A stretch of DNA of 64,000 nucleotides from Chitinophagales bacterium (GTDB lineage Bacteria > Bacteroidota > Bacteroidia > Chitinophagales > CAIOSU01). The stretch spans positions 3,624 through 67,623 of the forward strand of contig JAWXCB010000062.1 of the NCBI GenBank assembly GCA_034440455.1. The letters are read 5' to 3'. A model generated the notes under the pieces. That model saw only the letters and a list, made by a program, of their open reading frames with translations, was not told the origin of the DNA and searched no databases. This document shows positions 27,694-59,628 of the stretch, in pieces (the stretch's first letter is position 1; each line of letters starts with the position of its first letter). The translations under genes and the position numbers were made by a program.

Positions 27694-29202
27694 ATGCTTG
27701 CAGCGCTTATTAAGAAAAGACTAAAGAATTATAAAATACAGGTTGCTGACATTGACGCATCGTTGGAGCAAAAACTGCGAAAGTCAAAAAGCGTTGCGGT
27801 AATCGGTAGCGGACTTGCGGGACTAAGCGCAGCTACTACGCTGGCAGAGCGCGGCTTCAAAGTGACTGTAATTGAAAAGAGTAATTACATCGGGGGGAAG
27901 ACAGGAGCATGGCAGCATACCTTCAAGGATGGCTACACCGTGACGATTGACCACGGGTTTCATGCTTTTTTTTATCAGTATTACAACCTGTGGAATTTCA
28001 TAGAGAAGATGCAAGTGAAGAAATTCATGCGCCCGATTGAAGAATATCTTGTGCTGAATCACCAAAAAGAGAAACTCAGTTTTAAGGGAATTGCAAAAAC
28101 TCCGTTGCTGAATATTTTGTCGCTGGGGTGGAAGGGCTTTTACAGTTTCTTTGAAATTCTTCGCAAGCCGCAAAGCATGGAAATGGCTGCGTTTCTGAAT
28201 TACAGCGAGGATACTACTTTTAAAAAGTATGACAAGCAGTCGTTTGCTGAATTTACGGGGCGATTACAACTTCCAAAAAATTTACGCTTAGTATTCAACT
28301 CGTTTTCAAGAGCATTTTTCGCAGAGCCGCAGCAGATGTCTATGGCAGAGTTGATGAAGAGTTTTCACTTTTTTTATCTCAGTCACGATTATGGAATTGA
28401 CTATGATTATTTCATGGGAAATTATGACGACTGCTTGTTGAAGCCCACAAAAGAATATCTTGAAAAATCAGGCGCGGTATTTTTTATCAATGAAAAAGTG
28501 GAGCGCATTGAAAAAACCATGCACGGAATTCGCGTCAACAACAGCGAGTTTGATTATGCGGTTGTCGCTGCGGATGTGAAAGGAACAAAGAGGATTGCGC
28601 AAAATAGCGATTGGATAAAAAAGGAAACTCCGCAGTATTACAATCAACTGAATAGTTTGCAACATGCAAATGGCTACGCAGTGTACAAGCTCTGGATAAA
28701 AGGGCGCATCGAAGAAACAATCCCGGTGTTTGTGATTACTGACCGACTGAAGGCACTTGATGCAGTAACTGTGTTTGATGCTTTTGATGCAGAAGCAAAG
28801 AAGTGGGCTGATGAAAACAATGGAACAGTATTGGAGTTGCATTGTTATTCAGTAACACCGGAATTTTATGACCGTGAAAAAATCAGCAAGCAATTTCTCG
28901 CAGAGTTGTATCATTACTTCCCTGTGCTAATTGAAAAAGAAATCGTGTATGAATATTTGCAATTAGACAACAACTTCTCTTCTTTTCAAATGAATCAGCA
29001 TGACAGCAGACCATCGTATCAATCACCATTGCCGCAGGTGAAGTTTGCGGGCGATTGGGTGAAGCTGCCAATTCCGGCAATGCTGATGGAAGCGGCATTC
29101 AGCTCGGGACTTTTTGCAGCGAATGAAATTTTAGCGCAGGAAAAGTTGCAGGCAGCGCCTATTTGGTCAGTTCCCTTAAATGGTTTGTTGCATGGAAATT
29201 AG
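27694..29202 (+). CDS. FAD-dependent oxidoreductase (amine oxidase/phytoene desaturase superfamily)
   Basis: VAVIGSGLAGLSAATTLAERGFKVTVIEKSNYIGGK dinucleotide-binding motif, next to a lycopene cyclase-domain gene. Confidence 0.75.
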   Translation: MLAALIKKRLKNYKIQVADIDASLEQKLRKSKSVAVIGSGLAGLSAATTLAERGFKVTVIEKSNYIGGKTGAWQHTFKDGYTVTIDHGFHAFFYQYYNLWNFIEKMQVKKFMRPIEEYLVLNHQKEKLSFKGIAKTPLLNILSLGWKGFYSFFEILRKPQSMEMAAFLNYSEDTTFKKYDKQSFAEFTGRLQLPKNLRLVFNSFSRAFFAEPQQMSMAELMKSFHFFYLSHDYGIDYDYFMGNYDDCLLKPTKEYLEKSGAVFFINEKVERIEKTMHGIRVNNSEFDYAVVAADVKGTKRIAQNSDWIKKETPQYYNQLNSLQHANGYAVYKLWIKGRIEETIPVFVITDRLKALDAVTVFDAFDAEAKKWADENNGTVLELHCYSVTPEFYDREKISKQFLAELYHYFPVLIEKEIVYEYLQLDNNFSSFQMNQHDSRPSYQSPLPQVKFAGDWVKLPIPAMLMEAAFSSGLFAANEILAQEKLQAAPIWSVPLNGLLHGN

Positions 29203-29716
29203 CGCGCGACTTTTTATTTTTTTCTTTTTGAGTTGGAATTCTGTTTCAGCACAATTATCGTTACCTCAACTGCGCGAACTTTATTTAGCTGCCGTAGAGA
29301 ACCGCGAGCAATCGGATAAGTTCATGCAATACATGAATTCGGTCAAACACGAAGATGCGCTGCTCCATGCTTATTTTGCGTCTGCGCAAGCGTTGGTTTC
29401 AAAGCATCTTTCCGGTCCATCCGACAAACTGAAATATTTGCGGTTAGCCGACAAATCATTTGAAGAGGCAATTCAAAAAAATCCAAACGATGCGGAAGTG
29501 CGTTTTCTGCGCTTTTCCGTGCAACTGCATTTGCCCCGCTTTCTTGGTTACAGCGATGATATGGAAAACGACATCGAAGGGATGCTGCAAAAAATTCCAC
29601 ACACGAAATCACTGCAAGATTATCCTGATTGGCTGAAGACAGTAATTGGTTTTATGCTTGATTCCGGAGAGTGTTCAGATACACAGGAAGCAAAATTCAA
29701 AGCCCTGCTGAAGTGA
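29192..29716 (+). CDS. Hypothetical secreted protein
   Basis: ORF with signal-like N-terminus MEISARLFIFFFLSWNSVSAQ. Its stop overlaps the GTG start of the next gene (GTGA at 29713-29716). Confidence 0.5.
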   Translation: MEISARLFIFFFLSWNSVSAQLSLPQLRELYLAAVENREQSDKFMQYMNSVKHEDALLHAYFASAQALVSKHLSGPSDKLKYLRLADKSFEEAIQKNPNDAEVRFLRFSVQLHLPRFLGYSDDMENDIEGMLQKIPHTKSLQDYPDWLKTVIGFMLDSGECSDTQEAKFKALLK

Positions 29717-30384
29717 AATACACATACCTCCTCATTAACATCTTCACGATTATCGGTCCGCTCTTGAGTTCGTTTGAGCGCAAGGTAAATTTTAAGGCAA
29801 AGTGGAAATATGCGCTTGCTGCAAACGTGTTCGTTGCAATTCCGTTTCTTATTTGGGATGTATTTTTTACCAAGCAGGGCGTGTGGGGCTTCAACGCGGA
29901 GTATTGCATCGGCACTGATTTAGCCGGTATGCCAATTGAAGAGTGGCTGTTTTTTTTTACTGTGCCTTTCGCTTGCCTGCTGATTTATGAAACGGTATGT
30001 ACGCTTCGACCAACTCCAACTTTCAGCAGAATTTCGCTGCATGTCGCAACGATTGCGGGAACGCTGCTGCTTGCGCTTGCAATAGTTTTCAGCAATCAAA
30101 TCTATACTGTGGTTGGTTTTTCGCTTGCAGGTTTGTTGCTGTTGACACACGGATTGATTTTGAAGCAGAAATATTTTTCCAACTTCTGGATTGCTTATCT
30201 CATCCACCTCCTTCCTTTTTTCATTGTGAATGGCATACTCACTTACCTGCCTGTTGTGTGGTACAACGATGCAGAAAACTTCGGCATTCGCATGGGCACA
30301 ATTCCAATTGAAGACAGCATTTATTCTTTACTGCTGTTGTTGGGAAATATCACGGTGTATGAGTTATTGCAGCGCAGAAACTGA
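29713..30384 (+). CDS. Lycopene cyclase domain-containing protein (fused CrtYc/Yd type)
   Basis: YTYLLINIFTIIGPLL, PIEEWLFFFTVPF and a second half with IPIEDSIYSLLLL: two lycopene-cyclase-domain repeats in a membrane protein. Start inferred at GTG 29713. Confidence 0.7.
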   Translation: MKYTYLLINIFTIIGPLLSSFERKVNFKAKWKYALAANVFVAIPFLIWDVFFTKQGVWGFNAEYCIGTDLAGMPIEEWLFFFTVPFACLLIYETVCTLRPTPTFSRISLHVATIAGTLLLALAIVFSNQIYTVVGFSLAGLLLLTHGLILKQKYFSNFWIAYLIHLLPFFIVNGILTYLPVVWYNDAENFGIRMGTIPIEDSIYSLLLLLGNITVYELLQRRN

Positions 30385-30520
30385 ACTTGTCCTGCCGGAC
30401 TACTTCCAGCATCCCCTGATTCTAAAATTTCAGGGAGAATGGAGCAGGATAGTAAAACTATTTACTCTCTTATTTGTTCAGGATTTCAACTACTTTTATT
30501 AAACAATAATTTCCTCAGTC

Positions 30521-31420
30521 TTGGGTCAATATTCTATCAGTGAATTGGAAAAATTATGCGGTATAAAGGCGCACACCATCCGTATTTGGGAGAGGCGCTA
30601 TGACCTGCGTTATCTTGACACACAGCGCACCGACACCAACATCCGCTACTATAGTGATGACGACCTGAAATACATGCTGAACCTTTCGCTCTTAGTGAAT
30701 AACGGCATTAAGATTTCAAAAGCTGCGCGTATGTCTAAAGAGGAAATCAATGCTACGGTAAATAGACTAACACAGGCTGCTGATTCGCACGAATTTGAAA
30801 TCAATACGTTTTTAGTTGCTATGTCGGAGTTTGACGAGGCGCGTTTTGACAGGCAGGCAACGGCTTGCATCATGAAATATGGCGTGGAGCAAACCGTGCT
30901 GAACATCATTTATCCCTTCCTGCACAAAATCGGCATCCTGTGGCAAACGGGTGCAATTAATCCCGCGCAGGAGCATTTTGTTTCGAACCTTATCCGGCAA
31001 AAGTTGCGTGTTGCAATTGACGGACTTGTGATTCCCGATGCGCGGCTTACAAAAAAATATTTGCTGTTTCTTCCTGAAGGCGAGCAGCATGACATCGGTT
31101 TGTTATTTGCGAATTACCTGATTCGCTCGCGTGGCTTTCACACGCTGTATCTCGGGCAGAGCGTTCCAATAGAAAACCTGCTGGAGACCAATATATTTTA
31201 CAAAGCGGATTACCTGTTCACCATCATTACGAGCGCATTTCGGGGAGAAGAGTTGATGGAGTATCTCCACCTGCTTTCAAAAACTTTTTCAAAAACTGAA
31301 ATACTTGTTTCCGGCTTGCTTTTGGAAGATAAGGAGATTAAAAAAGCGCCTGCGCATATCAAGATGCTGAAAAGTGTAGAGGATACGATGGCGCATTTGG
31401 AGAAAGAAAAGGGAAGCTGA
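30521..31420 (+). CDS. MerR-family regulator with cobalamin-binding domain (CarH/LitR-like)
   Basis: N-terminal MerR HTH YSISELEKLCGIKAHTIRIWERRY. C-terminal B12-binding signature E-x-H-x-x-G in PEGEQHDIGLLF. TTG start. Confidence 0.75.
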   Translation: MGQYSISELEKLCGIKAHTIRIWERRYDLRYLDTQRTDTNIRYYSDDDLKYMLNLSLLVNNGIKISKAARMSKEEINATVNRLTQAADSHEFEINTFLVAMSEFDEARFDRQATACIMKYGVEQTVLNIIYPFLHKIGILWQTGAINPAQEHFVSNLIRQKLRVAIDGLVIPDARLTKKYLLFLPEGEQHDIGLLFANYLIRSRGFHTLYLGQSVPIENLLETNIFYKADYLFTIITSAFRGEELMEYLHLLSKTFSKTEILVSGLLLEDKEIKKAPAHIKMLKSVEDTMAHLEKEKGS

Positions 31421-33115: not shown

Positions 33116-33450
33116 AAAAATGCTTACTGTTTTATTGTGTTAATTGATTTTTTATTTGTCGGGTAATTCTGATTATCCGGTGAATAAGAATAGGATGCCT
33201 GATAGCAGAGGAAATCCTTAACGCCTCTGTATTCGCAAATATATTGACTAAGAGAGGCATCACCAATATTTTCAGAAAATCGGTACTTCAACGTAGATGC
33301 TATCTAAACATTTGGAGGAAGGAGGGCGAAGGAAAAAAGCTTTGCACGATTCTTTTATTTCTGCAACCGCAGGATAAAGGCGAATAGCGTCTCACAAAAC
33401 AAATGTACGCCTTTAAAGTCAGGAGAGTCGTCATTGATTTATTTATTGCG

Positions 33451-33996
33451 TTAGAACTGCCTGAGTATTGAAAAACTTTTCAATGGATAATCATTTACAA
33501 CGTGCAGCACTCTTGCTTTGGGCGCTGCTTCTGCTTCCTTTTGCTTGCTTTTACTCCAGAGGAGGCGATATTCCGCCCGCAATTTTTTGGGCACATCACG
33601 TTCAGGAATTCCTGATTTCAATGCGGCTTCTTTTAAGCTCACAAGTTCAAAACAGAGCAGGTTGATGAGCGGATAACTTCCGTTGAGCGGTTTATAGCTG
33701 ACTGGTTTCAGCTTGCGCGCTTTTAAGTGTTTAAGAGTTAATCTATACGTGTGGCGGAGCAGGCAATGGCACAGCGCTGTGTAAATGCGTGAAAGCATCC
33801 TTCTCTCTTTTAGCTCCCGGAAAGTTTCTTTAAATATTTCTTCGGCTATTTTATCATCACCTGTCATGTTAAGGATAACTCCATACATCATGGGCGCATA
33901 TTTATCATGCACAATTTCCCATACGGATTCTTTGTTTTGAACAAGCATGGAAATAATGGTGGAGTCGCGGTGGTGGCTATTTAGAGAGGGTGTCAT
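33451..33996 (-). CDS. ECF-like sigma-70 family RNA polymerase sigma factor
   Basis: Region 2-like VWEIVHDKYAPMMYGVILNMTGDDKIAEEIFKETF and ALCHCLLRHTYRLTLKHLKARK. Region 4-like LCFELVSLKEAALKSGIPERDVPKKLRAEYRLL. 181 aa. Confidence 0.7.
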   Translation of the reverse strand: MTPSLNSHHRDSTIISMLVQNKESVWEIVHDKYAPMMYGVILNMTGDDKIAEEIFKETFRELKERRMLSRIYTALCHCLLRHTYRLTLKHLKARKLKPVSYKPLNGSYPLINLLCFELVSLKEAALKSGIPERDVPKKLRAEYRLLWSKSKQKEAEAAPKARVLHVVNDYPLKSFSILRQF

Positions 33997-34057
33997 TTAT
34001 TTTCATATTTGTTGGTGAGAGGCAGCCGCTAATTTTATCAGAGTTATTCGGATGCCC

Positions 34058-34098
34058 GTTACGCAATTCGTTAAAAAGGTTATATCATTCACACATTT
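34058..34098 (-). promoter_or_regulatory. Stress-module copy A (box pair only) upstream of the sigma-like gene
   Basis: Gene strand: AAATGTGTGAATGATATAAC-CTTTTTAAC-GAATTGCGTAAC. The boxes are 21 bp apart, as in all other copies. The downstream GGTTTC..CTCACCTTTGTAT part is not conserved at the standard distance (CTCACC occurs at 34014-34019). Confidence 0.7.
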
Positions 34099-34309
34099 TG
34101 GAATTCGGAGATTTTCTTTCAAATGCGGTCAATTGCATTTGAATAGATTCTAAGTATTGTTCGAAATCAACCGTGCTGATTTCTTTTTCAAGAGTAGAAA
34201 GGAACAAAGGTGTTTCGCTTAAATGCTTGTAGAGTTCAGGAAAATCTTTTTGAATAATTGTTGTAACTCTGAAGATTTCATTCATGAGTTTATTTTGCAG
34301 CGGCAGCAT
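34085..34309 (-). CDS. Hypothetical small protein
   Basis: 74-aa ORF whose stop lies inside module copy A. Its start overlaps the stop of the upstream small membrane protein. Confidence 0.4.
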   Translation of the reverse strand: MLPLQNKLMNEIFRVTTIIQKDFPELYKHLSETPLFLSTLEKEISTVDFEQYLESIQMQLTAFERKSPNSKMCE

Positions 34310-34503
34310 TATGCTTCATCTTTTGTTGTGCGCACCAATCCAATGCCGGAGATAAAAAACAGGAGACCGAGCACTCCGAAAACCAGAAGAGCTTTAACAT
34401 CATGCGCACCGCCCGATGTAGTGACGAATGCTATCGCAGTATAAATAAGTCCGCCTATTCCAAGAATAGTAAGGACTGCGCCAAAGACTCTTTTGAGGTT
34501 CAT
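34309..34503 (-). CDS. Small two-TM membrane protein
   Basis: 64 aa with two clear hydrophobic helices (VFGAVLTILGIGGLIYTAIAF and LLVFGVLGLLFFISGIGLV). Confidence 0.55.
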   Translation of the reverse strand: MNLKRVFGAVLTILGIGGLIYTAIAFVTTSGGAHDVKALLVFGVLGLLFFISGIGLVRTTKDEA

Positions 34504-35213: not shown

Positions 35214-35246
35214 AAAAAAAGGCGGGCGCAACGCCCGCCTTTTTTT
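35214..35246 (-). terminator. Strong intrinsic (bidirectional-type) terminator
   Basis: A7 - ggcgggcg caa cgcccgcc - T7: an 8-bp GC stem at 35221-35239 flanked by A and T runs. Confidence 0.85.
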
Positions 35247-35259
35247 GAGAGGTTGTTGC

Positions 35260-35727
35260 TTACTTTTTATTGTCAACCGTCAGGTCTTTGAATGCCTTTC
35301 CAAACTCATCCATGTCGTGATTGAATTCACGCTTGAATGTTTCCCAATCGCTTTGGCTCTTTTCGTAGTTGTCAATTTTGGTACGCATGGCTTTGTTTTG
35401 CTGTTCGAGCGTATCAACCCTTTTAGCATAAACTGCGTCAAGCGTCTTGCCTGAACTTTTCATCTTTTCTCTTACTTCAGCAATGCGCACTTCATTGTCT
35501 CTGATTTTTATATCAGATTCATTCTTGAATGTTTGCCATTCAAATGCTTTAGCTGATTTCTCCTTTTCTGCATCTGCTTTTTGTTGTGCTTCGTTCAAAT
35601 CTTGTTTTGCATCTTTCACATCAGCCTGAGCGGCATCTTCTTTTTGAGCAGATGACTGGCAGCCGGTGAAGATTGTTCCTGCCATCAGCGTGGTTGCCAT
35701 GGCGAGGGTTAAAATTGTTTTTTTCAT
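35260..35727 (-). CDS. Lipoprotein with coiled-coil region
   Basis: Lipobox IFTGC after a signal peptide. The rest is K/E/Q/A-rich and helical. Confidence 0.7.
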   Translation of the reverse strand: MKKTILTLAMATTLMAGTIFTGCQSSAQKEDAAQADVKDAKQDLNEAQQKADAEKEKSAKAFEWQTFKNESDIKIRDNEVRIAEVREKMKSSGKTLDAVYAKRVDTLEQQNKAMRTKIDNYEKSQSDWETFKREFNHDMDEFGKAFKDLTVDNKK

Positions 35728-35788: not shown

Positions 35789-35971
35789 TTATGCCCCCAT
35801 GATTTTATGCAACTCCTCTTTTGTTTTGCCTAACTTGATTTGGAGTTTTCCAAGCATTTCGTCTTTTTTGCCTTCAGCAAACAACAAGTCATTGTCTGTT
35901 AATGTTGCAAATTTTTGTTTGAGCTTGCCCTTCTGCTCATCCCAGTTTCCTTTTAGTTCTGTGGTGTTCAT
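35789..35971 (-). CDS. CsbD-family general stress protein
   Basis: 60 aa. LKGNWDEQKGKLKQKFATLTDNDLLFAEGKKDEMLGKLQIKLGKTKEE is the CsbD signature. Confidence 0.85.
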   Translation of the reverse strand: MNTTELKGNWDEQKGKLKQKFATLTDNDLLFAEGKKDEMLGKLQIKLGKTKEELHKIMGA

Positions 35972-35989: not shown

Positions 35990-36005
35990 GTGAAAGAATT
36001 TTCAC
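35990..36005 (-). promoter_or_regulatory. Leader palindrome GTGAAA-N4-TTTCAC (CsbD gene)
   Basis: Perfect 6-bp inverted repeat directly after the TTTGTAT box. The identical element occurs at 39501-39516 and 41440-41455. Confidence 0.6.
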
Positions 36006-36006
36006 A

Positions 36007-36079
36007 ATACAAAAGTGCGGGCTTTAACTATGGAAACCGTTACACAATTCTGTAAAAGAGTTACATCATTCACACATTT
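36007..36079 (-). promoter_or_regulatory. Stress-module copy B (upstream of CsbD gene)
   Basis: Gene strand: AAATGTGTGAATGATGTAAC-N9-GAATTGTGTAAC-GGTTTC-N13-CGCACTTTTGTAT. Box spacing 21, box-to-TTTG spacing 25. Confidence 0.8.
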
Positions 36080-38143: not shown

Positions 38144-38617
38144 TCAACTTAAATATCTTCTCAAAACCCATGCGGTGGTTTCATGCTGCTTCATCAATCC
38201 TGTGAGGAAATCAGCAGTTCCCGCGTCTTTATATTTTTCGCTGCAAGCATCCACGCCTTCACGCAGTTCAACTACAGAAGTTTCATGGTCTTTCAGCAGT
38301 TCCCGAATCATTTCTTTTGAGGAAGGATATTTTCCGGGAGTTTCTTTGATGGTGGATAGTTTTGCAAACTCCTGCATGGTGCCGATGGTTTTGCTTCCTA
38401 ATTTATTGATGCGTTCAGCTACTTCATCAATGGCTTCTTCCAGTTGCTTGTATTGGCTCTCAAAAAGCTTGTGCAACTCCATGAAACTTTCACCTCCCAC
38501 GTTCCAATGAAATTTTCTTGTCTTTACATACAAGGTCATCTGGTTGGACAGCACAGTTGAAAGAAGCGTAGTGACGCGCTCTAAAGTTTTTTCAGAGATA
38601 CCGATATTAGTTTTCAT
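38144..38617 (-). CDS. dps: Dps family DNA starvation/stationary-phase protection protein
   Basis: 157 aa. LYVKTRKFHWNVGGESFMELHKLFESQY ... DEVAERI ... are ferritin-like Dps motifs. Confidence 0.9.
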   Translation of the reverse strand: MKTNIGISEKTLERVTTLLSTVLSNQMTLYVKTRKFHWNVGGESFMELHKLFESQYKQLEEAIDEVAERINKLGSKTIGTMQEFAKLSTIKETPGKYPSSKEMIRELLKDHETSVVELREGVDACSEKYKDAGTADFLTGLMKQHETTAWVLRRYLS

Positions 38618-38646: not shown

Positions 38647-38719
38647 ATACAAAGTTGAACCCATGCCTTGTGGAAAGCGTTACACAATTGCAGGAAAGAG
38701 TTACATGATTCACACATTT
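38647..38719 (-). promoter_or_regulatory. Stress-module copy C (upstream of dps)
   Basis: Gene strand: AAATGTGTGAATCATGTAAC-N9-CAATTGTGTAAC-GCTTTC-N13-GTTCAACTTTGTAT. Spacings 21 and 25. Confidence 0.8.
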
Positions 38720-38998
38720 GTAAAAATTTTGTTTAGTGGAAGTCTTTCAAGAAACCGGTTAACGGGTAACAGGCTCGCGTACCTTTTCGTTGGTCATAGA
38801 AAGAAGATTGGAAAATTCCCATGTTCCTGATTTATCCGTTTAGCCAACCTGACAAACCGGGAAAGACTCCACTAAACAAAACTTTGTGACATTTTATTAT
38901 AGGCTTGGTGTGAAATACTGCTGAAAAATTAAAGTGAGGAGCAAAGCGGTGACTTGCGTACGGTTACCCCTCACTTTAATCTGATGATTAATCAGCAA

Positions 38999-39463
38999 TC
39001 AATTTTTCTTATCAGTCCGCTTGTTAGCATTCTGATTTTGGTTACCGCTCTTGTTGGAGATTTCATCTTTGTTTGCATCACGAACGGTGCTTTCACGCTG
39101 ACTTCCTTTCTGATATTCTTGCTGGCAATTGCGCTCATCTGAAGTAGCCTTGTCACCGTTCTGCTGCTTTTTGCCCGGATACTCATTCGGAGTTTTCTGC
39201 TGATCTTCATCCTCCTCAGCAACTGTTGTATCCTCTCTTTGGCGATTACGCTGGTCTGAAGGAGCCTTGTCACCATTCTGCTGTTTTTTACCGGGAAATT
39301 CATTCGGAGTATCTGTTTGTTCCTCATTTTCATCAACAATTGAAGATGATTTTTCTGTCGGAGCGCCCTTTTTTCTTTGATTGTCGCGATTGAACTGACC
39401 GCCTTGATTTTGCTGACCACTCTGGTTACCTGTAACCTCTTGGTCTTTTTGATTTTTTGACAT
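38999..39463 (-). CDS. Intrinsically disordered hydrophilic protein with internal repeat (hydrophilin-like)
   Basis: Start MSKNQKDQ at 39463. 154 aa rich in Q/N/K/E/D/G. Tandem TPNE(F/Y)PGKKQQNGDKA(P/T)SD(Q/E)RN repeat. Confidence 0.65.
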   Translation of the reverse strand: MSKNQKDQEVTGNQSGQQNQGGQFNRDNQRKKGAPTEKSSSIVDENEEQTDTPNEFPGKKQQNGDKAPSDQRNRQREDTTVAEEDEDQQKTPNEYPGKKQQNGDKATSDERNCQQEYQKGSQRESTVRDANKDEISNKSGNQNQNANKRTDKKN

Positions 39464-39500
39464 TTCGTTTAATTTTTTTTGCCGCGACTGGCGGAACAGT

Positions 39501-39516
39501 GTGAAAGAATTTTCAC
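39501..39516 (-). promoter_or_regulatory. Leader palindrome GTGAAA-N4-TTTCAC (hydrophilin 1)
   Basis: Identical to 35990-36005. Followed in the leader by a short CCGC-N5-GCGG hairpin (39482-39494). Confidence 0.6.
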
Positions 39517-39517
39517 G

Positions 39518-39590
39518 ATACAAAGGTGAGTGCTTAGTTGTCAGAAACTGTTATACAATTCTTAAATAGAATTGCATCATTCACACATTT
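39518..39590 (-). promoter_or_regulatory. Stress-module copy D (upstream of hydrophilin 1)
   Basis: Gene strand: AAATGTGTGAATGATGCAAT-N9-GAATTGTATAAC-AGTTTC-N13-CTCACCTTTGTAT. Spacings 21 and 25. Confidence 0.8.
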
Positions 39591-39613: not shown

Positions 39614-40834
39614 TCAGGTATTTAAAAGCCCATAAATCGTGTAGGCTGTCAGCAGCAGCGTCAGTAAGATGGCGCATACGCTAATCACAGGAATGTTCTT
39701 GATATTGCCCGGGATGCGGAAAGGGCGTTTCAAATTTTTATTTGTAATCCGCAGAACGATAACGGAAGTATTCACCAATAGGAAGGTGATGAAAATGGAA
39801 AAATTAGCAATGAGCGCAACGGTTTCAATTTTCCCTATCAGGGAAAAGGCACTTGTAACCAGCAAGATGAGCAACAGGGCAGGCACAGGCGTTTGCCGTG
39901 AAGCCCATACCCATGAAAACCATTTCATAAAAGAAACTTCCTTTGCCATGCTTAAAATAACACGGGAGCTGCCCATCATATTTGAAAGAATGGTGTTTGA
40001 AGTAGAGAACAGCGCGATGATCACGATAACGAGAGCGCCTGTTTTTCCAAACCTGTTGCTCACAATATCAGCTAAGGGGCTATCCGACTCACTTAGTTCT
40101 TGCCAGGGAATGGCGCTCACGGCACAAATGGCAACCAACGTGTAAACAACCATGACGATTGCGCTTGCAATGAATAACGCTTTGGGAATATTCTTCTCGG
40201 GCTTTTTTGTTTCTTCAGCGAGCTTCACTATTTCTTCAAAACCGAGATAAGCAAAGTAACTTAACGCAGCCGCAGCGAGTACACCGTTGAATCCGGAGGG
40301 AGGCAACTCTAAATAATCTACTTTTCCTAAATCAGGAAAGGCTGCATAGATGACAAAAAGCAATCCGCCTGTTTCGATAACGGTAAAAATAATGTTGATG
40401 ATGGATGATTGCCTGATGCCGCTGATATTAACCAGAAAAACCAACACAAGGATTCCCGGAGCAACCGCCAGCAGGGGCAGTTCAATCAATCGGGTGAAAT
40501 AGCCTGCAAACCCCAGTGACACAGTTGCCCCGCTGATGATGCCGTTTAAGGAAATGATAAAGCCAAGAATAATTCCCGCTTTCTTTCCTAAGGCATTTTT
40601 AGCATATACATATTCCCCGCCCGCCTTCGGGAAAGCAGCGCTCATTTCTGCATAAGAAAAAGCGGATAGCAATGCGGTGACAGATGCAATGAGAAAAGCA
40701 AGCCATATCATGTTGCCTCCAAATCCGGCCACCTTGCCCACCAGCGCATAAATGCCTGCTCCCAGAATGGAACCCACGCCAAAGAAAACGCATTCGGCAA
40801 GTCCTAAGGTCCTTTTCAGTTTTTGAGTAGGCAT
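39614..40834 (-). CDS. APC-family amino acid permease
   Basis: 406 aa with about 12 TM segments. N-terminal LGLAECVFFGVGSILGAGIY is typical of the APC superfamily. Confidence 0.8.
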   Translation of the reverse strand: MPTQKLKRTLGLAECVFFGVGSILGAGIYALVGKVAGFGGNMIWLAFLIASVTALLSAFSYAEMSAAFPKAGGEYVYAKNALGKKAGIILGFIISLNGIISGATVSLGFAGYFTRLIELPLLAVAPGILVLVFLVNISGIRQSSIINIIFTVIETGGLLFVIYAAFPDLGKVDYLELPPSGFNGVLAAAALSYFAYLGFEEIVKLAEETKKPEKNIPKALFIASAIVMVVYTLVAICAVSAIPWQELSESDSPLADIVSNRFGKTGALVIVIIALFSTSNTILSNMMGSSRVILSMAKEVSFMKWFSWVWASRQTPVPALLLILLVTSAFSLIGKIETVALIANFSIFITFLLVNTSVIVLRITNKNLKRPFRIPGNIKNIPVISVCAILLTLLLTAYTIYGLLNT

Positions 40835-40924: not shown

Positions 40925-40996
40925 TTCTAAAAGTGAGCGTATTCCTTCATAAACTTTCACACTATTCTAAAATAAAGTTGCATCATTCACACATCT
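40925..40996 (-). promoter_or_regulatory. Stress-module copy E (upstream of APC permease), more divergent
   Basis: Distal box GATGTGTGAATGATGCAAC and proximal GAATAGTGTGAA are 21 bp apart. The core reads CTCACTTTTAG with 24-nt spacing. Confidence 0.65.
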
Positions 40997-41121: not shown

Positions 41122-41403
41122 TTACTCTTTATGATTTTTATTACCTGTTTTGTTCTCCTTCTGCTTTGAATCAGAACCTGTTCTTCCTGCACTGCCTGCA
41201 CGCTCTTGGGTATTCTTAATATCCGTACCGGCTTTAGCTTGCGGTGAAGTCGCAAGCTGACGTTGCTGGTCGCCTTGTTGCTTACCCTGATTTGGAGTTG
41301 GGTTTTTAGCGTTCGTTTCCTTTTTGCGGTCACCATGTGCTGATGATTGATTTGACTTGCTGCCGATTTGCAGATTGCCTTGGTCTTTTTGTTTGTCTTT
41401 CAT
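41122..41403 (-). CDS. Intrinsically disordered hydrophilic protein (hydrophilin-like), paralogous 5' region to 38999..39463
   Basis: 93 aa starting MKDKQKDQGN, rich in Q/K/N/G/S/T with no hydrophobic core. Promoter and leader are nearly identical to copy D. Confidence 0.65.
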   Translation of the reverse strand: MKDKQKDQGNLQIGSKSNQSSAHGDRKKETNAKNPTPNQGKQQGDQQRQLATSPQAKAGTDIKNTQERAGSAGRTGSDSKQKENKTGNKNHKE

Positions 41404-41439
41404 TTTTTGAATTTAAATTCCCGCTACTGGCGGAACAGC

Positions 41440-41455
41440 GTGAAAGAATTTTCAC
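41440..41455 (-). promoter_or_regulatory. Leader palindrome GTGAAA-N4-TTTCAC (hydrophilin 2)
   Basis: Identical to the other two. Followed by a CCGC-N5-GCGG hairpin (41421-41433). Confidence 0.6.
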
Positions 41456-41456
41456 A

Positions 41457-41529
41457 ATACAAAGGTGAGCGTACTATTATCAGAAACCGTTATACAATTC
41501 TTGAAAAGAGTTGCATCATTCACACATTT
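41457..41529 (-). promoter_or_regulatory. Stress-module copy F (upstream of hydrophilin 2)
   Basis: Gene strand: AAATGTGTGAATGATGCAAC-TCTTTTCAA-GAATTGTATAAC-GGTTTC-N13-CTCACCTTTGTAT. Spacings 21 and 25. Confidence 0.8.
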
Positions 41530-41563: not shown

Positions 41564-42001
41564 TTATTTGCTTGTTGAACCGGAATCTTTCATCGTTGTA
41601 ATTCTTCCTGAAAGGTCAACATGGTCGCCTTCTTTCATCCACATCTCCGTTCCATTTTTTTTTACGATGGTTCCATCGCGCTTCACTTTTGTGCTATTAC
41701 TCATAATGATACCTTTTTTCAAAAATTTCATTGTGCCTCCGAATATCAGCATCATTTTGCCGTTCAGCATTATCACGCCATCAGGATGTGACTTTATCTT
41801 TTCGCCCGGTGCGTTTTTAACAGGGCTGTTTTGCATCTTGTCCTCCGTATTGGAATTCGTGTTTTTTGGAGTATTATCAAAATCAGGAGGGATGGTTTTG
41901 ATAAAGGAGTCAGGCGGGAGAGAATTTATTAAGGAGTCGGCTTGAGCATTAACGCACAACGTGATTGCAGTGGCTGCAAATGCGAAGATTAGTTTTTTCA
42001 T
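41564..42001 (-). CDS. Hypothetical secreted protein
   Basis: 145 aa with signal peptide MKKLIFAFAATAITLCVNAQA. Repeated DG(V/T)I..NGK/DGTIVKKNGTEMWMKEGD-type segments. Confidence 0.65.
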   Translation of the reverse strand: MKKLIFAFAATAITLCVNAQADSLINSLPPDSFIKTIPPDFDNTPKNTNSNTEDKMQNSPVKNAPGEKIKSHPDGVIMLNGKMMLIFGGTMKFLKKGIIMSNSTKVKRDGTIVKKNGTEMWMKEGDHVDLSGRITTMKDSGSTSK

Positions 42002-42034: not shown

Positions 42035-42107
42035 TTACAAATATGCTTCTATTGATTCCGGAAAGCGTTATACTATTCTGATGAAGAGTTACATCATTCA
42101 CACATTT
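42035..42107 (-). promoter_or_regulatory. Stress-module copy G (upstream of secreted 145-aa protein)
   Basis: Gene strand: AAATGTGTGAATGATGTAAC-N9-GAATAGTATAAC-GCTTTC-N13-AGCATATTTGTAA. Spacings 21 and 25. Confidence 0.75.
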
Positions 42108-42135: not shown

Positions 42136-42208
42136 GAATGTGTGAATCATGTAACTCTTTCCCGCAATTGTGTAACAGTTGTGAAAGCAGGCGGCAGCAC
42201 CTTTGTAT
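42136..42208 (+). promoter_or_regulatory. Stress-module copy H (only + strand copy; upstream of lipoprotein and OM barrel genes)
   Basis: GAATGTGTGAATCATGTAAC-N9-CAATTGTGTAAC-AGTTGT-N13-CAGCACCTTTGTAT. Spacings 21 and 25. It lies back to back with copy G, 28 bp apart. Confidence 0.8.
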
Positions 42209-42398: not shown

Positions 42399-43025
42399 AT
42401 GAAAACTTTCAAATGTACCGTACTGCTCTGCATTGCAGCATGTTTAATAACTATTTCCGAAGCGTACGCACAGCCATCTGTCGCACTGGGCGGAAAAATA
42501 GGAGCTTCCTTCAGCGGGTTTCGAGGTGATGATGCCGGGGATGTTTCCTTTCGCAAGGGAGTAGCGGGTGGTTTGTTTGTAGCTATCAGCCCTGCGGGAT
42601 TTTTCACGATACAGCCAGAGCTTCTCTTTCAGCAAAGAGGCGCAGTGAGTGAAAATAAAACACTCAACATAAAGTCAGATGTGAAGATTGGCTACATGAA
42701 TATCCCGGTGCTGTTCAAATTAAGGCTGCCCATCGCGGAGAAATTTTATCCGCACGTTTATATCGGTCCGCAGTTTTCATACAAGTTGAAAAGCGAAACT
42801 TCCATCGAAGCGTTTGACCTGGGCACCATAACGAGCGATATCAACCTGCGCAATTATGACCTTGGGGGCGTATTCGGTTTCGGACTGGATGTTGAAATCA
42901 ATCATCTTTTTCTCACCGTTGATTTTCGTTATGCATTGGGAGCGCTGGATATAGAAGAGTCGGACGATTTCCAGATAAAGAATAAAGACCTTTCCATTAT
43001 GGCAGGCGCTGGATTTAAATTTTAG
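42399..43025 (+). CDS. Outer-membrane beta-barrel (porin-family, OMP_b-brl_2-like) protein
   Basis: Signal peptide ending EAYAQ, alternating strands, C-terminal AGAGFKF. Confidence 0.75.
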   Translation: MKTFKCTVLLCIAACLITISEAYAQPSVALGGKIGASFSGFRGDDAGDVSFRKGVAGGLFVAISPAGFFTIQPELLFQQRGAVSENKTLNIKSDVKIGYMNIPVLFKLRLPIAEKFYPHVYIGPQFSYKLKSETSIEAFDLGTITSDINLRNYDLGGVFGFGLDVEINHLFLTVDFRYALGALDIEESDDFQIKNKDLSIMAGAGFKF

Positions 43026-43196: not shown

Positions 43197-44051
43197 ATGA
43201 GCAAACCCGTTTTAAATAAAATGACTGAACCGCTTCTTCTATCAAAGAGCAAGAGAGACGCTGTTACTTTGAAAAATAAAAATGATACCTTAAAAGGCAT
43301 GAAAGCGTTTTTCACGGAGGTGACGTCACTCACGTTTTTCACGGGAAGGTTTTTCAAAGAATTATTCCAACCACCATATGAGTTCAATGAATTAGTGAAG
43401 CAAGCGTACCTGATTGGCAATAAATCTTTTTACCTCGTTGCCATCACTGGCTTTATCATGGGCTTGGTGCTCACGATACAATCCGCACCGACCTTGTCGC
43501 AATTCGGAGCGGAGTCATGGCTGCCCGCCATGGTTGCTGTTTCCATTATTCGGGAGATAGGACCTGTTATCACTGCATTGATTTGCGCGGGCAAAGTAGG
43601 CTCCGGCATCGGGGCGGAATTAGCCTCCATGAAAGTAACCGAGCAAATTGATGCGATGGAAGTTTCAGGCGCCAACCCTTTCAAATATCTTGTGGTGACG
43701 CGCGTAGTTGCTGCCACGCTCATGATTCCCGTGCTCGTGATTTTCTCTGACGCTATTTCTTTGGGGGGCGCATTCATGGGCGTGAATATCACGGGTGATG
43801 TGAGTTTCTCTTTATTCTTTTCCCAAGTGGTTGAGGCGGTTGATTTCGCTGATGTATTTCCTGCTTTTATTAAAACATTTTTCTTCGGCTTTATCATCGG
43901 GCTTGTAGCCTGTTACAAAGGTTATCATTCCAATAAGGGTACGGAAGGAGTGGGAGCGGCAGCCAATGCGGCTGTGGTGATGGCTTCCTTATTGGTTTTT
44001 ATTATTGATATGATTGCCGTGCAGTTTACGAACCTGTTAATTAACTATTAA
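43197..44051 (+). CDS. mlaE: MlaE-family ABC transporter permease
   Basis: REIGPVITALICAGKVGSGIGAELASMKVTEQIDAMEVSGANPFKYLVVTRV is the MlaE signature. The start may be an internal Met. Confidence 0.8.
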   Translation: MSKPVLNKMTEPLLLSKSKRDAVTLKNKNDTLKGMKAFFTEVTSLTFFTGRFFKELFQPPYEFNELVKQAYLIGNKSFYLVAITGFIMGLVLTIQSAPTLSQFGAESWLPAMVAVSIIREIGPVITALICAGKVGSGIGAELASMKVTEQIDAMEVSGANPFKYLVVTRVVAATLMIPVLVIFSDAISLGGAFMGVNITGDVSFSLFFSQVVEAVDFADVFPAFIKTFFFGFIIGLVACYKGYHSNKGTEGVGAAANAAVVMASLLVFIIDMIAVQFTNLLINY

Positions 44052-44052
44052 C

Positions 44053-44790
44053 ATGGAAGCAACGCAAAATGCCACGGTGGTAAAGATGGCGCACCTCCAA
44101 AAATCCTTTGGAGACAACGAGGTGCTGAAAGACATCAGCCTCACGATTCACAAAGGAGAAACTGTTGTGGTGCTGGGCAAGTCAGGCTCAGGGAAATCGG
44201 TATTGATTAAGTGCATGGTGCGGTTGCTGGATGTGGATGAAGGCAAGGTGTCTATTCTTGGAAGCGATATTTTTTCTTTGAATAGAAAAGAGCTGAATCT
44301 GCTCCGAATGAAAATTGGTTTCCTGTTTCAAGGCGCAGCATTGTATGATTCTTTAACAGTGCGGGAAAATCTGGAGTTTCCGCTGCGACAATCGGGCAAG
44401 CCACGGGAAGAAATTGATGCGCTGGTGATGGAAGTGTTGCAAAGCGTGGGGTTGGAAGATGCTGTTGACTTAATGCCATCGGAACTCTCCGGGGGAATGA
44501 GAAAAAGAATAGGCTTGGCACGCTCAATGATTCTGAAGCCGGAGATTATGCTTTATGATGAACCAACCACGGGGTTGGACCCAATCACCGCGAAGGAAAT
44601 AAGCAACCTGATTTTAGAAGTGCAAAAGAAATACAATACCACTTCCATCATCATTACGCATGACATTCAATGTGCGCGGATAACAGCTAACAGGATGCTG
44701 ATACTGAACAATGGGGTATTTGTGGCAGAAGGTGCTTTTGATGAATTGAAAAAATCAGAAGATAAATTGGTGCATTCGTTTTTTGAATAG
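44053..44790 (+). CDS. mlaF: ABC transporter ATP-binding protein (MlaF-like)
   Basis: Walker A GKSGSGKS, signature LSGGMRKR, Walker B MLYDEPT. Adjacent to the MlaE and MlaD genes. Confidence 0.8.
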   Translation: MEATQNATVVKMAHLQKSFGDNEVLKDISLTIHKGETVVVLGKSGSGKSVLIKCMVRLLDVDEGKVSILGSDIFSLNRKELNLLRMKIGFLFQGAALYDSLTVRENLEFPLRQSGKPREEIDALVMEVLQSVGLEDAVDLMPSELSGGMRKRIGLARSMILKPEIMLYDEPTTGLDPITAKEISNLILEVQKKYNTTSIIITHDIQCARITANRMLILNNGVFVAEGAFDELKKSEDKLVHSFFE

Positions 44791-44882
44791 CTACAAGTAG
44801 AATATGCCCGGCTTGCAGCTTGTAGCTAACAGCTTGAGGCTTTAAATAATTATCAGATTAACTCATTGATAAAAAAAGTATC

Positions 44883-45608
44883 ATGAAAAAAAATACAAAC
44901 TACAAAGTCAGGCTGGGAATATTAATTACCGTTGGGATAGCGCTTTTTGTATTTGCCATCTACTTTATAGGCAGCAGGCAGCACCTGTTCAGCAGAACAT
45001 TTGAAATCAGCGCGGTATTCAAAGATGTGAACGGGCTACAGGTGGGCAACAACGTGCGGTTTTCGGGCATCACGGTTGGAACGGTGAGTAAAGTTGAAAT
45101 CATCAGCGACACTACGGTGCGTGTAAGCTTAGTGATTGAGGACAGGACGCAACAGTTCATCAAGAAGGATGCTACCGCAGTAATCAGCTCCGATGGACTG
45201 ATGGGAAACAAAGTGATGACCATCAACCCCGGCACCGCAGGGGCGGGGGAAATAGAAGACAACGATGTGCTCGCCACCATTCAGCCGGTGAACATGGATG
45301 ACATCATGCTGAAAATAAAAATGACTGCCGATAATGCCGCCCTCATTACCAGCGACCTTGCAACGGTGATGAACAGCGTGAGTATGGGAAAAGGTACGAT
45401 CGGAAAACTGTTCATGGATTCAACTCTTGCTGAAACACTCGACCAAACACTGATGAGCGTAAAGGGCGCTGCCGAAGGCATGGATGAAAATATGGAAGCG
45501 GCAAAAAGTAACTTTCTCCTGAAAGGATATTACAATAAAAAAGAAAAGGAGTTGGAGAAAGAAAAAGAGTTTGAGCAGAAGGAAAAAGAAACGAAGGACA
45601 AAGATTGA
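44883..45608 (+). CDS. mlaD: MlaD-family (MCE domain) protein
   Basis: N-terminal TM, then FKDVNGLQVGNNVRFSGITVGTVSKVE (MCE domain). K/E-rich tail. Confidence 0.75.
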   Translation: MKKNTNYKVRLGILITVGIALFVFAIYFIGSRQHLFSRTFEISAVFKDVNGLQVGNNVRFSGITVGTVSKVEIISDTTVRVSLVIEDRTQQFIKKDATAVISSDGLMGNKVMTINPGTAGAGEIEDNDVLATIQPVNMDDIMLKIKMTADNAALITSDLATVMNSVSMGKGTIGKLFMDSTLAETLDQTLMSVKGAAEGMDENMEAAKSNFLLKGYYNKKEKELEKEKEFEQKEKETKDKD

Positions 45609-52274: not shown

Positions 52275-52616
52275 TTATTGAAGCGCGTGTGTGATGATTA
52301 ATTCGCTGACAGGTTTTTTTATCCATTTGTGCAGAAAAAAATGCAACACGATTCCTCCCACAAGATAAAATGCCGCAACAATAAAAAAACCATAATAAGA
52401 TTTGCCGAGCATCTCACCCAGCATCAGCGCAATGCCGATGTTCAGCACCAATGCGAACAGGGAGAGCATGATGATGGCGCTGAGGCGTGAGACCAATTCA
52501 GTTATCACTAAGGTGAACATCTCTACGGTTTTCAACTTTGAAAGCTCGTAGCTTGTTTTACTGTATGATTCAACCCGCTCAAATAAACTTTCAATTTGGC
52601 TTGCTGGAATTTCCAT
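52275..52616 (-). CDS. Phage holin family (Holin-X/DUF1469-like) membrane protein
   Basis: Start MEIPASQIESLFERVESY at 52616. Two TM helices. This partner commonly follows YtxH genes. Confidence 0.6.
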   Translation of the reverse strand: MEIPASQIESLFERVESYSKTSYELSKLKTVEMFTLVITELVSRLSAIIMLSLFALVLNIGIALMLGEMLGKSYYGFFIVAAFYLVGGIVLHFFLHKWIKKPVSELIITHALQ

Positions 52617-52853: not shown

Positions 52854-53135
52854 TTACCTTGAGGCAGCGTTCACCACTGCTTCAACTTCTTCCGGTTTTG
52901 GTTGTCCATCTTTCGACATGCGGTGTGTGACTTCTTCTTTCACCGTTTCATATTTCTTGTTGATGCTTTCAATGAACTCATTGAATTTCTCTTCCAGACC
53001 TTCAACGTACTCATCGCTTTTTTTGGAAATTTTCTTCCGCGTGTTTGAACCTTTATCGGGAGCGAATAAGATTCCTAAGGTAGCGCCAACGGCAGCTCCT
53101 GCCAGTAAGCCTAATAATACTTTTCCTGAACTCAT
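52854..53135 (-). CDS. YtxH domain-containing general stress protein
   Basis: MSSGKVLLGLLAGAAVGATLGILFAPDKGSNTRKKI is the YtxH signature. Start at the internal Met (53135). Confidence 0.85.
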   Translation of the reverse strand: MSSGKVLLGLLAGAAVGATLGILFAPDKGSNTRKKISKKSDEYVEGLEEKFNEFIESINKKYETVKEEVTHRMSKDGQPKPEEVEAVVNAASR

Positions 53136-53171
53136 GTTATTTGATTTTAATTGTGATTTAAATAATGACAA

Positions 53172-53244
53172 GTACAAAGGTGAGTCCATCTCTGATGATT
53201 ACCGTTACACAATTACGGGAAAGAGTTACATCATTCACACATTT
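53172..53244 (-). promoter_or_regulatory. Stress-module copy I (upstream of YtxH operon)
   Basis: Gene strand: AAATGTGTGAATGATGTAAC-N9-GTAATTGTGTAAC-GGTAAT-N13-GACTCACCTTTGTAC. Spacings 21 and 25. Confidence 0.8.
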
Positions 53245-53323: not shown

Positions 53324-53947
53324 TTATGAAATGAATTCTTTAAATTGTTCCAATATCATGTAAGATGCCGGAGGCGAACCCCATTCCGTATGAGCATCAA
53401 CCCAATCATCAAAATACGGAGTAGCTAATAATGCTTTTACTTCTTCTATCAGGTACTTTCTCAATTCAGGAGCGCTTTGACGTAATTCTTCCCAAATATT
53501 TGCTCTGTTTTCAAGGATGTACACAATGTCCTCAAAATCTTTACTTGTTATTCCATTTCCTTTACCTCGTTCTTTAAAGGCTTCCAGTTTACTTGCAATA
53601 AAAAAAGGCGCATCGAATATTTTCACAACATGCTCTTTATCTATCGTATAATCTATAGCAGTCTTAAAGCCTTCTGAGTACCAGCGACTTTTGAATCCTA
53701 AAACTTCTCCTGTTGTTGGCATCACATCAACAATAATATCCTGCACGATGTACCTGCAAATGATATTGGATGTCATATCGTTTTTGAAACCAAGCTCTAT
53801 GAATTGTTTGTCAATTTCTGCGTAGCTGCTATATGTCATTACCTCCACAACCACGTCCACATCTTTCGTAGGTCTTGCTTCTGAGGAGAAATCATCTGCA
53901 TATAAGGAAACACTTGCACCGCCAACGAAAACTATTTTTTCCCGCAT
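53324..53947 (-). CDS. Nucleotidyltransferase-fold protein (AbiEii-like or MNT-like toxin candidate)
   Basis: FVGGASVSLY...RPTKDVDVVVEV fits the GS...DxD nucleotidyltransferase motif. 207 aa in an AT-rich segment. Confidence 0.5.
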   Translation of the reverse strand: MREKIVFVGGASVSLYADDFSSEARPTKDVDVVVEVMTYSSYAEIDKQFIELGFKNDMTSNIICRYIVQDIIVDVMPTTGEVLGFKSRWYSEGFKTAIDYTIDKEHVVKIFDAPFFIASKLEAFKERGKGNGITSKDFEDIVYILENRANIWEELRQSAPELRKYLIEEVKALLATPYFDDWVDAHTEWGSPPASYMILEQFKEFIS

Positions 53948-53953
53948 CGTCCC

Positions 53954-53975
53954 AAAAGCGGTCTAGACCGCTTTT
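53954..53975. promoter_or_regulatory. Perfect 22-bp palindrome between the wHTH and nucleotidyltransferase genes
   Basis: AAAAGCGGTCTAGACCGCTTTT. As RNA it gives a 9-bp stem with a CTAG loop, in the 40-nt intercistronic gap. Confidence 0.6.
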
Positions 53976-53987
53976 ATGTTATCAATA

Positions 53988-59391: not shown

Positions 59392-59464
59392 CAACAAAGG
59401 TGAGTCCACTAATTCCCAATAGTGTTACACGATTCTTGAAATGAATTGCATGATTCACACATTT
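59392..59464 (-). promoter_or_regulatory. Stress-module copy J (upstream of the 1102-aa T9SS protein)
   Basis: Gene strand: AAATGTGTGAATCATGCAAT-N9-GAATCGTGTAAC-ACTATT-N13-GACTCACCTTTGTTG. Spacings 21 and 25. Confidence 0.75.
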
Positions 59465-59628
59465 CAGAAGAGCATTGCGCAGTTGCGCAACGACTATTAC
59501 GCCAATTAGAATAGGCTAAGAGAAATATGTTCTCCTTCTAAAATTCTCATAAAGAGGAATTTAATTTCCGTTTTGAAGAAAACAATTAGGGAGGCTAATT
59601 GGCTACAGAGCGATAAGAGTTACATCTT

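Follow-up and report, generated by a model that had tools for sequence, protein, structure and literature searches.

Introduction

Which factor reads the paired boxes in front of a sigma-like gene in a Chitinophagales bacterium: the product of the gene itself, or a regulator encoded elsewhere? We addressed this question for a stretch of 64,000 nucleotides (nt) of contig JAWXCB010000062.1 (assembly GCA_034440455.1), hereafter the window, which means the whole stretch that was analyzed. In it, a gene for a 181-amino-acid (aa) protein (33451-33996, minus strand) lies behind the box pair TATAAC-N15-CGTAAC (34058-34084, minus strand). A preliminary description of this DNA had put forward the protein, labeled as sigma-70 region 2/4-like and as related to sigma factors of the extracytoplasmic function (ECF) type, as the candidate autoregulated master regulator of the genes that share the boxes. 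Two promoter models had been offered with it. In the first, the boxes are the -35 and -10 elements of this sigma, while in the second they are tandem activator sites of a Bacteroidota-type core promoter. We know of no RpoS, SigB or EcfG, the known general-stress sigmas, in Bacteroidota, and to our knowledge it is largely unknown how these bacteria coordinate stress protection.

The reading that we favor, and to which we give slightly better than even chances, is that an AraC-type regulator activates a promoter module to which the boxes belong, and that the sigma-like gene is one of its targets. The box pair would then be the site of the activator within a promoter module of stress genes that recurs across Bacteroidota. 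A 179-aa one-component regulator, HMA-AraC, encoded outside the window, would bind the repeats in tandem, overlap the -35 region and recruit the RNA polymerase that carries the housekeeping sigma-A, and the RNA would begin about 5 nt downstream of AnCTTTG, a -7-type box that is sub-optimal. The sigma-like gene would be served by the same module, with a weakened -7 box in this genome.

The Promoter Module

The box pair 5' of the sigma-like gene is real, with one match in the window against 0.02 expected, and it proved to be part of a repeated module. The 20-mer AAATGTGTGAATGATGTAAC, when up to 3 mismatches are allowed, occurs 11 times in the window, as against 0 in 100 shuffles. Repeat finding together with scans by position weight matrix and hidden Markov model (HMM) gave a total of ten full module copies, the copy upstream of the sigma-like gene (copy A) and one half copy. 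A further copy stands immediately past the right end of the window, and every full copy in the window faces a gene.

A metagenome scan with the pattern GTGAATnATGTAAC-N14-RTRTAAC returned at least 120 loci (721 kb listed), with 177 unique copies among the matches listed; all counts of module copies and module-selected loci given below refer to these listed matches. The profile of the 177 copies is made of three blocks at fixed spacing, namely AAATGTGTGAATnATGTAAC, AATTGTGTAAC and, after 22 nt, AnCTTTG. The two boxes are one 11-mer, AATnRTGTAAC, directly repeated 21 base pairs (bp) apart, the distal repeat being extended to the 20-mer AAATGTGTGAATnATGTAAC. Conservation reaches beyond the search pattern at fixed columns, with AAATGT upstream, TyTTT after the distal box and AATT before the proximal box. 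The block AnCTTTG, located 22 nt past the proximal AAC, lies outside the search pattern as well; its A is found in 165/177 copies, each T in 160-177 and the G in 127. The 22 nt after the proximal box are unconserved in sequence. Nine copies of the window match the pattern, and all of them have AnCTTTG equally far from the proximal box. The base 5 nt past the G of AnCTTTG is a purine in 129/177 copies, and from the transcription start site (TSS) predicted there the ATG of the first long open reading frame (ORF) follows after a median of 35 nt.

Judged by its letters, AnCTTTG resembles the Bacteroidota -7 element. Bacteroidota sigma-A promoters are described as -33 TTTG / -7 TAnnTTTG, with the Flavobacterium -7 box at -12 to -5 (PMC9723704). 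Transcription would accordingly be expected to begin about 5 nt past AnCTTTG. If the G is set at -5, the proximal box falls at about -44 to -34 and the distal 20-mer at about -74 to -55, which centers the two boxes near -59 and -38 of the predicted TSS and lets the proximal one overlap the -35 region. The geometry of the second model of the preliminary description fits this arrangement in outline. The module shares with the sigma-A promoters the A-nn-TTTG about 5 nt upstream of a purine and predicted 5' untranslated regions of about 35 nt. It differs from them in that the first T is unconserved, an extra C is conserved and a GTAAC box takes the place at -33. In about 790 upstream regions of the fetched loci TAnnTTTG was 3.7-fold more frequent than in coding sequence. 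Most of its occurrences lie 10-50 nt from the ATG, in the distance range of the module box; for CAnnTTTG no enrichment was found in these regions outside the modules.

The first model takes the distal box as the -35 and the proximal box as the -10 of an ECF-type promoter, so that the downstream CTCACCTTTG becomes a conserved leader or a second promoter. It draws on the AAC-N15-CGT of the window copy, which resembles sigW/sigX-type promoters in spacing and in letters. The CGT, however, is found in the window copy only, while the ten other copies upstream of sigma-like genes read TGT or TAT; 10 of the 11 orthologous copies are therefore not of the AAC-N16-CGT type. One sequence that is present twice, 21 bp apart, points instead to two copies of one DNA-binding domain. 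Furthermore, the model leaves aside that AnCTTTG stands at a fixed distance and is followed by a purine-rich, +1-like position and then, at the median distance given above, by the ATG, and it places its TSS within the unconserved 22 nt. In one locus (L007), the sigma-like gene lacks the second box and yet keeps one box together with CACCTTTG. We consider this model hardly credible.

Three other views of the repeated element were rejected. A mobile repeat of the miniature inverted-repeat type does not fit, since the copies all precede a start codon by a fixed distance and point the same way as the gene. As an RNA element or leader it matches no Rfam family, and the 22 nt past the proximal box lack conservation. 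A CRP-like palindrome within TGTGA fails on the second half-site, which is absent from the sequence.

HMA-AraC, a Candidate Regulator

Among the 120 module-selected loci, 25 carry a gene for an HMA-AraC protein, 27 genes in all, and the AraC-family proteins of these loci measure 179-186 aa. Sixteen of the genes, that of L009 included, end in ...AAT GTG TGA AT, with the stop codon within a module's distal block, so that the coding sequence shares nucleotides with the presumed binding site and the two are passed on together. Four of the AraC genes themselves follow a module, and in six cases a divergent module lies upstream of the gene. Genes whose product ends in ...L-E-N-V before the TGA inside the distal block were seen in L082, L100, L098, L053, L102, L009, L147, L148, L150 and others.

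The same link appeared in the reverse direction. Three contigs were picked via the AraC protein alone, from metagenome-assembled genomes (MAGs) whose AraC proteins are labeled by NCBI as Bacteroidales or similar. The AraC stop marks the start of a module in each of them (L147 at 10531, L148 at 10550, L150 at 10552, with another at 12019). Further modules in these loci face cupin-like, DUF5670, Ice_binding and OmpA genes, and MlaE/ABC/MlaD, Usp, LEA_2 and YceI genes are present in the same loci. No sigma-like gene was found in these three AraC-selected 20-kb loci.

The AraC family is large and strongly conserved, with at least 8000 matches and a mean column identity of 82%. The C-terminal 100 residues form a double helix-turn-helix (HTH) domain of the MarA/SoxS/AraC type, while the fold of the N-terminal 65 residues is beta-alpha-beta-beta-alpha-beta, like that of HMA domains such as CopZ and Atx1, which it matches. 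This HMA-like domain carries a conserved CxxC motif (C10 and C13) and would, we infer, sense a thiol-reactive or metal signal.

Class II activators of the AraC/XylS family such as AraC, RhaS and MarA activate from a position like that predicted for the proximal box. The module resembles their targets (AraC at araI1-I2, RhaS, MelR, MarA/SoxS/Rob) in several respects: direct repeats are about 21 bp apart, the proximal one overlaps the -35, the promoter has a poor upstream element, and a double-HTH AraC protein is genetically tied to the site. It departs from them in the sensor, which is a 65-residue HMA-like fold with CxxC and not a cupin or receiver domain, in the core promoter of the Bacteroidota -7 type, and in the stop codon of the regulator inside the presumed site. 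Direct repeats of 21 bp had also suggested a response regulator of the LytTR type. This candidate was dropped because no such gene lies near the window modules or in the Pfam-annotated contexts and because the AraC link is far stronger.

The Sigma-Like Gene as a Probable Target

The 181-aa ORF was present in our ORF list as had been described. Its copy of the module, copy A, comprises the distal 20-bp block AAATGTGTGAATGATATAAC (34079-34098, minus strand; predicted -74 to -55), which overlaps the last 14 nt of a 74-aa ORF, and the proximal box AATTGCGTAAC (34058-34068, minus strand; predicted -44 to -34), with the C that makes the CGT unique to copy A. The earlier statement that only the box pair is conserved here is essentially right. 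It has to be amended in that a degenerate -7-like box, AAAATTAG (34029-34036, minus strand), stands at the standard distance and matches 4 of 6 conserved positions, the module consensus being cAnCTTTG. With the register taken from the 177-copy profile and the alignment of the sigma-upstream regions, the predicted TSS comes to lie near 34024, 28 nt before the ATG, which is a normal distance. This is the weakest -7 box of the set, which suggests low basal expression and a strong dependence on the activator. In a different frame, the start codon of the sigma-like gene is overlapped by an upstream ORF of 9 codons (33977-34006, minus strand; MKINDTLSK).

That the sigma-like gene is under the control of the module, as had been assumed, is borne out in many genomes. 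Of 22 sigma-like loci, 11 have a module at 72-200 nt upstream of the gene, and a same-strand module is found 0.5-2.5 kb upstream in 5 more. In L009, L010, L019 and L021 the gene is located within a conserved stress operon, which in L009 has the order DUF5670, YtxH, sigma-like gene and a membrane protein resembling Phage_holin_3_6. Because of the modules upstream in the sigma-centered loci and the location in the stress operon, we regard the sigma-like gene as a target that the module has kept in different genomes, and most likely as a member of the regulon or a second-tier factor.

The role of master regulator found no support in the comparison. Among the 120 module loci listed, one encodes a sigma-like protein as against the 25 that encode the HMA-AraC regulator. 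The stop codon of the latter is embedded in the module, as confirmed via the AraC-selected loci, and the sigma-like protein itself is without the linker and region 4.1. The word-indexed search gave only 10 and 22 matches for the sigma-like family, so that its abundance is not fairly comparable with that of the AraC family. Most probably, the sigma-like protein acts downstream of or alongside the AraC regulator.

What the Sigma-Like Protein Is

The window protein has no match in Pfam at E up to 0.1, and NCBIfam gives weak ECF matches with E about 1e-3. A family profile built from 10 sequences matched ECF sigmas in the PDB only marginally; with 74 sequences the matches became clear (SigW 4.8e-07, AlgU 1.7e-06, SigL 5.5e-05). 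The AlphaFold (AF2) model, with a pLDDT of 81 and a pTM of 0.76, has ECF sigmas as its best Foldseek matches, and its N-terminal domain superposes on region 2 of sigmaE at 1.6-2.1 A (TMt 0.75-0.80). The label sigma-70 region 2/4-like is hence upheld by profile and fold comparison, while an HMM search against Pfam finds nothing for it. The window protein is a remote relative of the ECF sigmas.

The alignment with SigW shows where the two differ. Family positions 13-96 align to SigW 8-91, which is sigma2, and positions 101-147 align to SigW 137-183, the last three helices of sigma4. Nothing in the family corresponds to SigW residues 92-136, which comprise the linker and region 4.1, so that about 40 residues are missing. 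In the 181-aa protein a sigma2-like domain (about 11-93) is followed by some 15 residues of coil, then by a sigma4-like HTH of three helices (109-157) and a disordered tail; in the AF2 model a 15-residue coil joins the domains between helices H75-93 and H109-116. The product is thus a truncated ECF-type protein consisting of sigma2 and a three-helix sigma4 HTH, without linker and region 4.1, and the normal geometry of a holoenzyme would be out of its reach. Within the family, region 2.2 varies in its Q/E pair, while the basic residues of the recognition helix are retained.

No sigma3 domain was found in the window protein by Pfam, in the AF2 model or in the profile alignment, and in this arrangement of sigma2 and sigma4 without sigma3 it is like the ECF (group 4) sigmas, among them B. 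subtilis SigW, P. aeruginosa AlgU and E. coli sigmaE. The best profile and fold matches and the position of the gene behind a conserved GTAAC-containing promoter are further likenesses. Unlike these sigmas, the protein lacks the Pfam sigma2 and sigma4 domains and the 40 or so residues between sigma2 and the sigma4 HTH, its region 2.2 Q/E pair is unconserved, and there is no adjacent anti-sigma gene, which is typical of ECF sigmas and not obligatory. Pfam sigma2 (PF04542), not detected in the window protein, appears weakly in 7/74 family members with a best E of 1.5e-4; of the sigma4 families (PF04545 or PF08281), likewise not detected in the window protein, PF04545 appears in 1/74. The family is not classifiable as ECF sigma because the published criteria require Pfam sigma2 and sigma4 matches (Casas-Pastor et al. 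2021, PMC7826278). An exhaustive HMM search of a library at 50% identity gave 300 clusters at E<1e-10, and every named member is a hypothetical protein without a Pfam domain. Close relatives in GTDB genomes come from MAGs assigned to Saprospiraceae, Chitinophagales, Chitinophagaceae or Ferruginibacter, or to the broader Bacteroidia/Bacteroidota.

No anti-sigma gene accompanies the sigma-like gene, as had been noted before. The Pfam scan found no anti-sigma domain among its neighbors, and no neighbor is conserved across 21 homologue loci. Two overlapping small ORFs lie 5' of it (34085-34503, minus strand) and agree with the earlier account: one of 64 aa (34309-34503) has two hydrophobic, transmembrane segments, and one of 74 aa (34085-34309) has a homologue in L004 at 58% identity. 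They are not conserved partners of the sigma-like family. As candidate anti-sigmas we rejected these ORFs and a downstream 540-aa protein, all of which have no relevant domains and are not conserved beside the homologues. The 335-bp gap downstream of the sigma-like gene (33116-33450) holds, in agreement with its earlier description as non-coding, nothing but ORFs of 44-55 aa. Read-through into the sigma-like gene from the csbD module was rejected as well, with a strong terminator at 35214-35246 between the two units.

Weighing the Readings

Several observations weigh against activation of the module by the AraC regulator with the sigma-like protein as a mere target. The binding of the regulator to the boxes is argued from the linkage of gene and site and from analogy with class II activators. 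An HMM search found no AraC-type gene in the 64-kb window or in an 8-kb extension to its right, despite the 12 modules there. The first base of the -7-like box is C in 10/10 window copies and in 86/177 listed copies, and not the T of sigma-A, which is found in 48/177; another C, two bases further into the box, is also conserved in the window copies and in the 177-copy profile. These C bases could mean that a different sigma recognizes the box. GTAAC is a typical -35 core of ECF sigmas, and the sigma-like protein, which keeps a plausible DNA-reading helix, could itself contact it. In addition, sigma-like and AraC genes lie less than 2 kb apart on the same contig in L009 and L020, an AraC remnant adjoins the sigma-like gene in L010, and a fragment of an AraC-type gene adjoins it on the P0002 contig. 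This proximity is compatible with a joint action of both proteins.

The protein may be a compact true sigma, for which the proximal GTAAC is the -35 and AnCTTTG a -10-like element, at the long spacing that is typical of Bacteroidota promoters, with AraC co-activating from the distal 20-mer and with positive autoregulation. The kinship with ECF sigmas by fold and profile, including the close superposition of sigma2 on sigmaE region 2, speaks for it, and so do the likeness of GTAAC to ECF -35 cores and the proximal box at the -33/-35 position. The module is conserved upstream of the gene, the L007 promoter retains one box with CACCTTTG, the C bases of the -7-like box are outside the sigma-A consensus, and the two genes are adjacent in several loci. 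The protein, however, lacks the roughly 40 residues of linker and region 4.1, its 15-residue coil is unlikely to span a -10-like box and a box 22 bp upstream, and its region 2.2 Q/E pair varies. Moreover, the same module and -7 box are found in the Bacteroidales-labeled MAG contigs that have the AraC gene and no sigma-like gene within 20 kb, the gene is encoded in just one of the 120 listed module loci, and mapped Flavobacterium ECF promoters carry a CGT -10 box (PMC9723704). We therefore consider a compact sigma unlikely.

The protein may also modulate the system without being a sigma. The sigma-like domain of PhyR works by protein-protein mimicry, and in a similar way the window protein could be a mimic of sigma4/sigma2 that gives feedback, either in competition for the GTAAC boxes or by titration of a partner such as the AraC activator. 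The compact predicted fold (pTM 0.76) with its very short interdomain coil, the lack of region 4.1 and the linker, on which the usual geometry of the holoenzyme depends, and the expression of the gene from the very module on which it would feed back agree with such a modulator. PhyR sigma-like domains are indeed among the Foldseek matches, but these matches are weak (TM 0.22-0.42, E of 0.7 or worse), no receiver domain was found in the protein by Pfam or in the AF2 model, and no NepR-like or anti-sigma-like neighbor is conserved. A modulator of this kind is in our view distinctly improbable. The likeness to the alphaproteobacterial EcfG-NepR-PhyR system lies elsewhere, in the flavor of the regulon (CsbD, Dps, YtxH-like and envelope proteins) and in a sigma-like protein inside it. 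What sets the two apart is the lack of a receiver domain, of NepR and of a GGAAC-N16-17-CGTT promoter, and a candidate master regulator of AraC type.

One may also speculate that the family is a new class of linker-less "mini-sigma", either a sigma that acts with a novel geometry at GTAAC/AnCTTTG or a non-sigma factor on an AraC-activated promoter, such as a sigma4 mimic, a co-activator or an anti-activator. We hold this to be rather doubtful. If true, an ancient HMA-AraC stress regulon of the Bacteroidota, itself undescribed, would have gained in the mini-sigma a layer specific to one lineage (Chitinophagales, Saprospiraceae).

A rigid, easily recognized module precedes genes for CsbD, Dps, YtxH, MlaE, OmpA, DUF5670 and ice-binding-like proteins. 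It is present in MAGs assigned to several Bacteroidota lineages and tied to an extremely conserved regulator made of HMA-CxxC and AraC domains, which yields a hypothesis for the regulon and for its sensor (thiol or metal sensing). Beside it stands an unannotated, truncated sigma-like family of at least 300 clusters at 50% identity, which would be missed by ECF classifications that need Pfam sigma2 and sigma4. The components are of known kinds, namely an ECF-like fold, an AraC activator and a Bacteroidota -7 promoter, and the combination and the truncation are new. The literature searched, the coverage of which was incomplete, yielded nothing on the module, on the HMA-AraC regulon or on the truncated family, so that an earlier description is possible.

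Module Copies and Other Features of the Window

The remaining copies of the module are spread over the right half of the window, most of them on the minus strand. The full copy at 36010-36079 (minus) is upstream of csbD (35789-35971) and a lipoprotein gene (35260-35727), and the one at 38650-38719 (minus) precedes a Dps/ferritin gene (38144-38617) and DUF2141. At 39521-39590 (minus) a full copy serves a gene for a 154-aa hydrophilic protein (38999-39463), a weaker one at 40927-40996 (minus) lies upstream of an amino-acid permease gene (39614-40834), and a full copy at 41460-41529 (minus) stands in front of the gene of a 93-aa hydrophilic protein (41122-41403). Two full copies are divergent: that at 42038-42107 (minus) faces a DUF6799 gene (41564-42001), and that at 42136-42205 (plus) a gene for an outer-membrane protein (OMP) beta-barrel (42399-43025). 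The plus-strand genes after the latter (43197-45608) read as MlaE/ABC/MlaD; Pfam supports MlaE only, and the ABC and MlaD identities are suggested by synteny with L147. Further full copies are found at 53175-53244 (minus), upstream of a YtxH-like gene (52854-53189) and a gene for a membrane protein resembling Phage_holin_3_6 (52275-52616), at 59395-59464 (minus), upstream of the gene for a 1102-aa protein sorted through a type IX secretion system (T9SS; 56063-59371), and at 62177-62246 (minus), upstream of a second OMP beta-barrel gene (61396-62148). The half copy consists of the distal block only (AATTGTGTGAAAGATGTAAC; 59619-59638, minus) and overlaps the TGA stop of a Na+/H+ exchanger gene. 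This orphan block lies 174 nt upstream of a full module and has the same stop-in-site arrangement as the AraC genes elsewhere.

Some copies carry additional elements. An inverted repeat, GTGAAAnnnnTTTCAC, starts at the predicted +1 just past TTTGTAT in three minus-strand copies of the window (35993-36009, 39504-39520 and 41443-41459) and also in copies of L004 and L006; it could be an operator or a 5' stem-loop. The modules at 39468-39590 and 41407-41529 (minus) are paralogous over an extended leader (about 123 nt, including a CCGCCAGTnGCGG hairpin), and both precede genes for hydrophilic, Q/G/K-rich small proteins.

Finally, a few features of the window stand apart from the module. At 38755-38864 (minus), between the 154-aa gene and the dps module, there is a full-length match to the Rfam family RF02496 "Atu_At1", a Rhizobiales small RNA family (64.4 bits, gathering score 60, E 2e-8); it has many compensated pairs and is unexpected in a Bacteroidota genome. 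In the region 27694-31420 a regulator with MerR and B12-binding domains (CarH/LitR-like; 30521-31420, plus) adjoins genes for lycopene cyclase and phytoene-desaturase-like proteins; together they probably make up a carotenoid cluster under light control, with no relation to the module. The gene of the 1102-aa T9SS-sorted protein (56063-59371, minus) holds tandem repeats of 540 bp. A DDE transposase gene of the insertion-sequence type (DUF4372 and DDE_Tnp_1; 63078-63995, plus) is located within the stress-gene island. Between two module-driven units, at 53324-54353 (minus), a 207-aa gene with a faint AbiEii-like match and a 121-aa partner gene may form a toxin-antitoxin pair.

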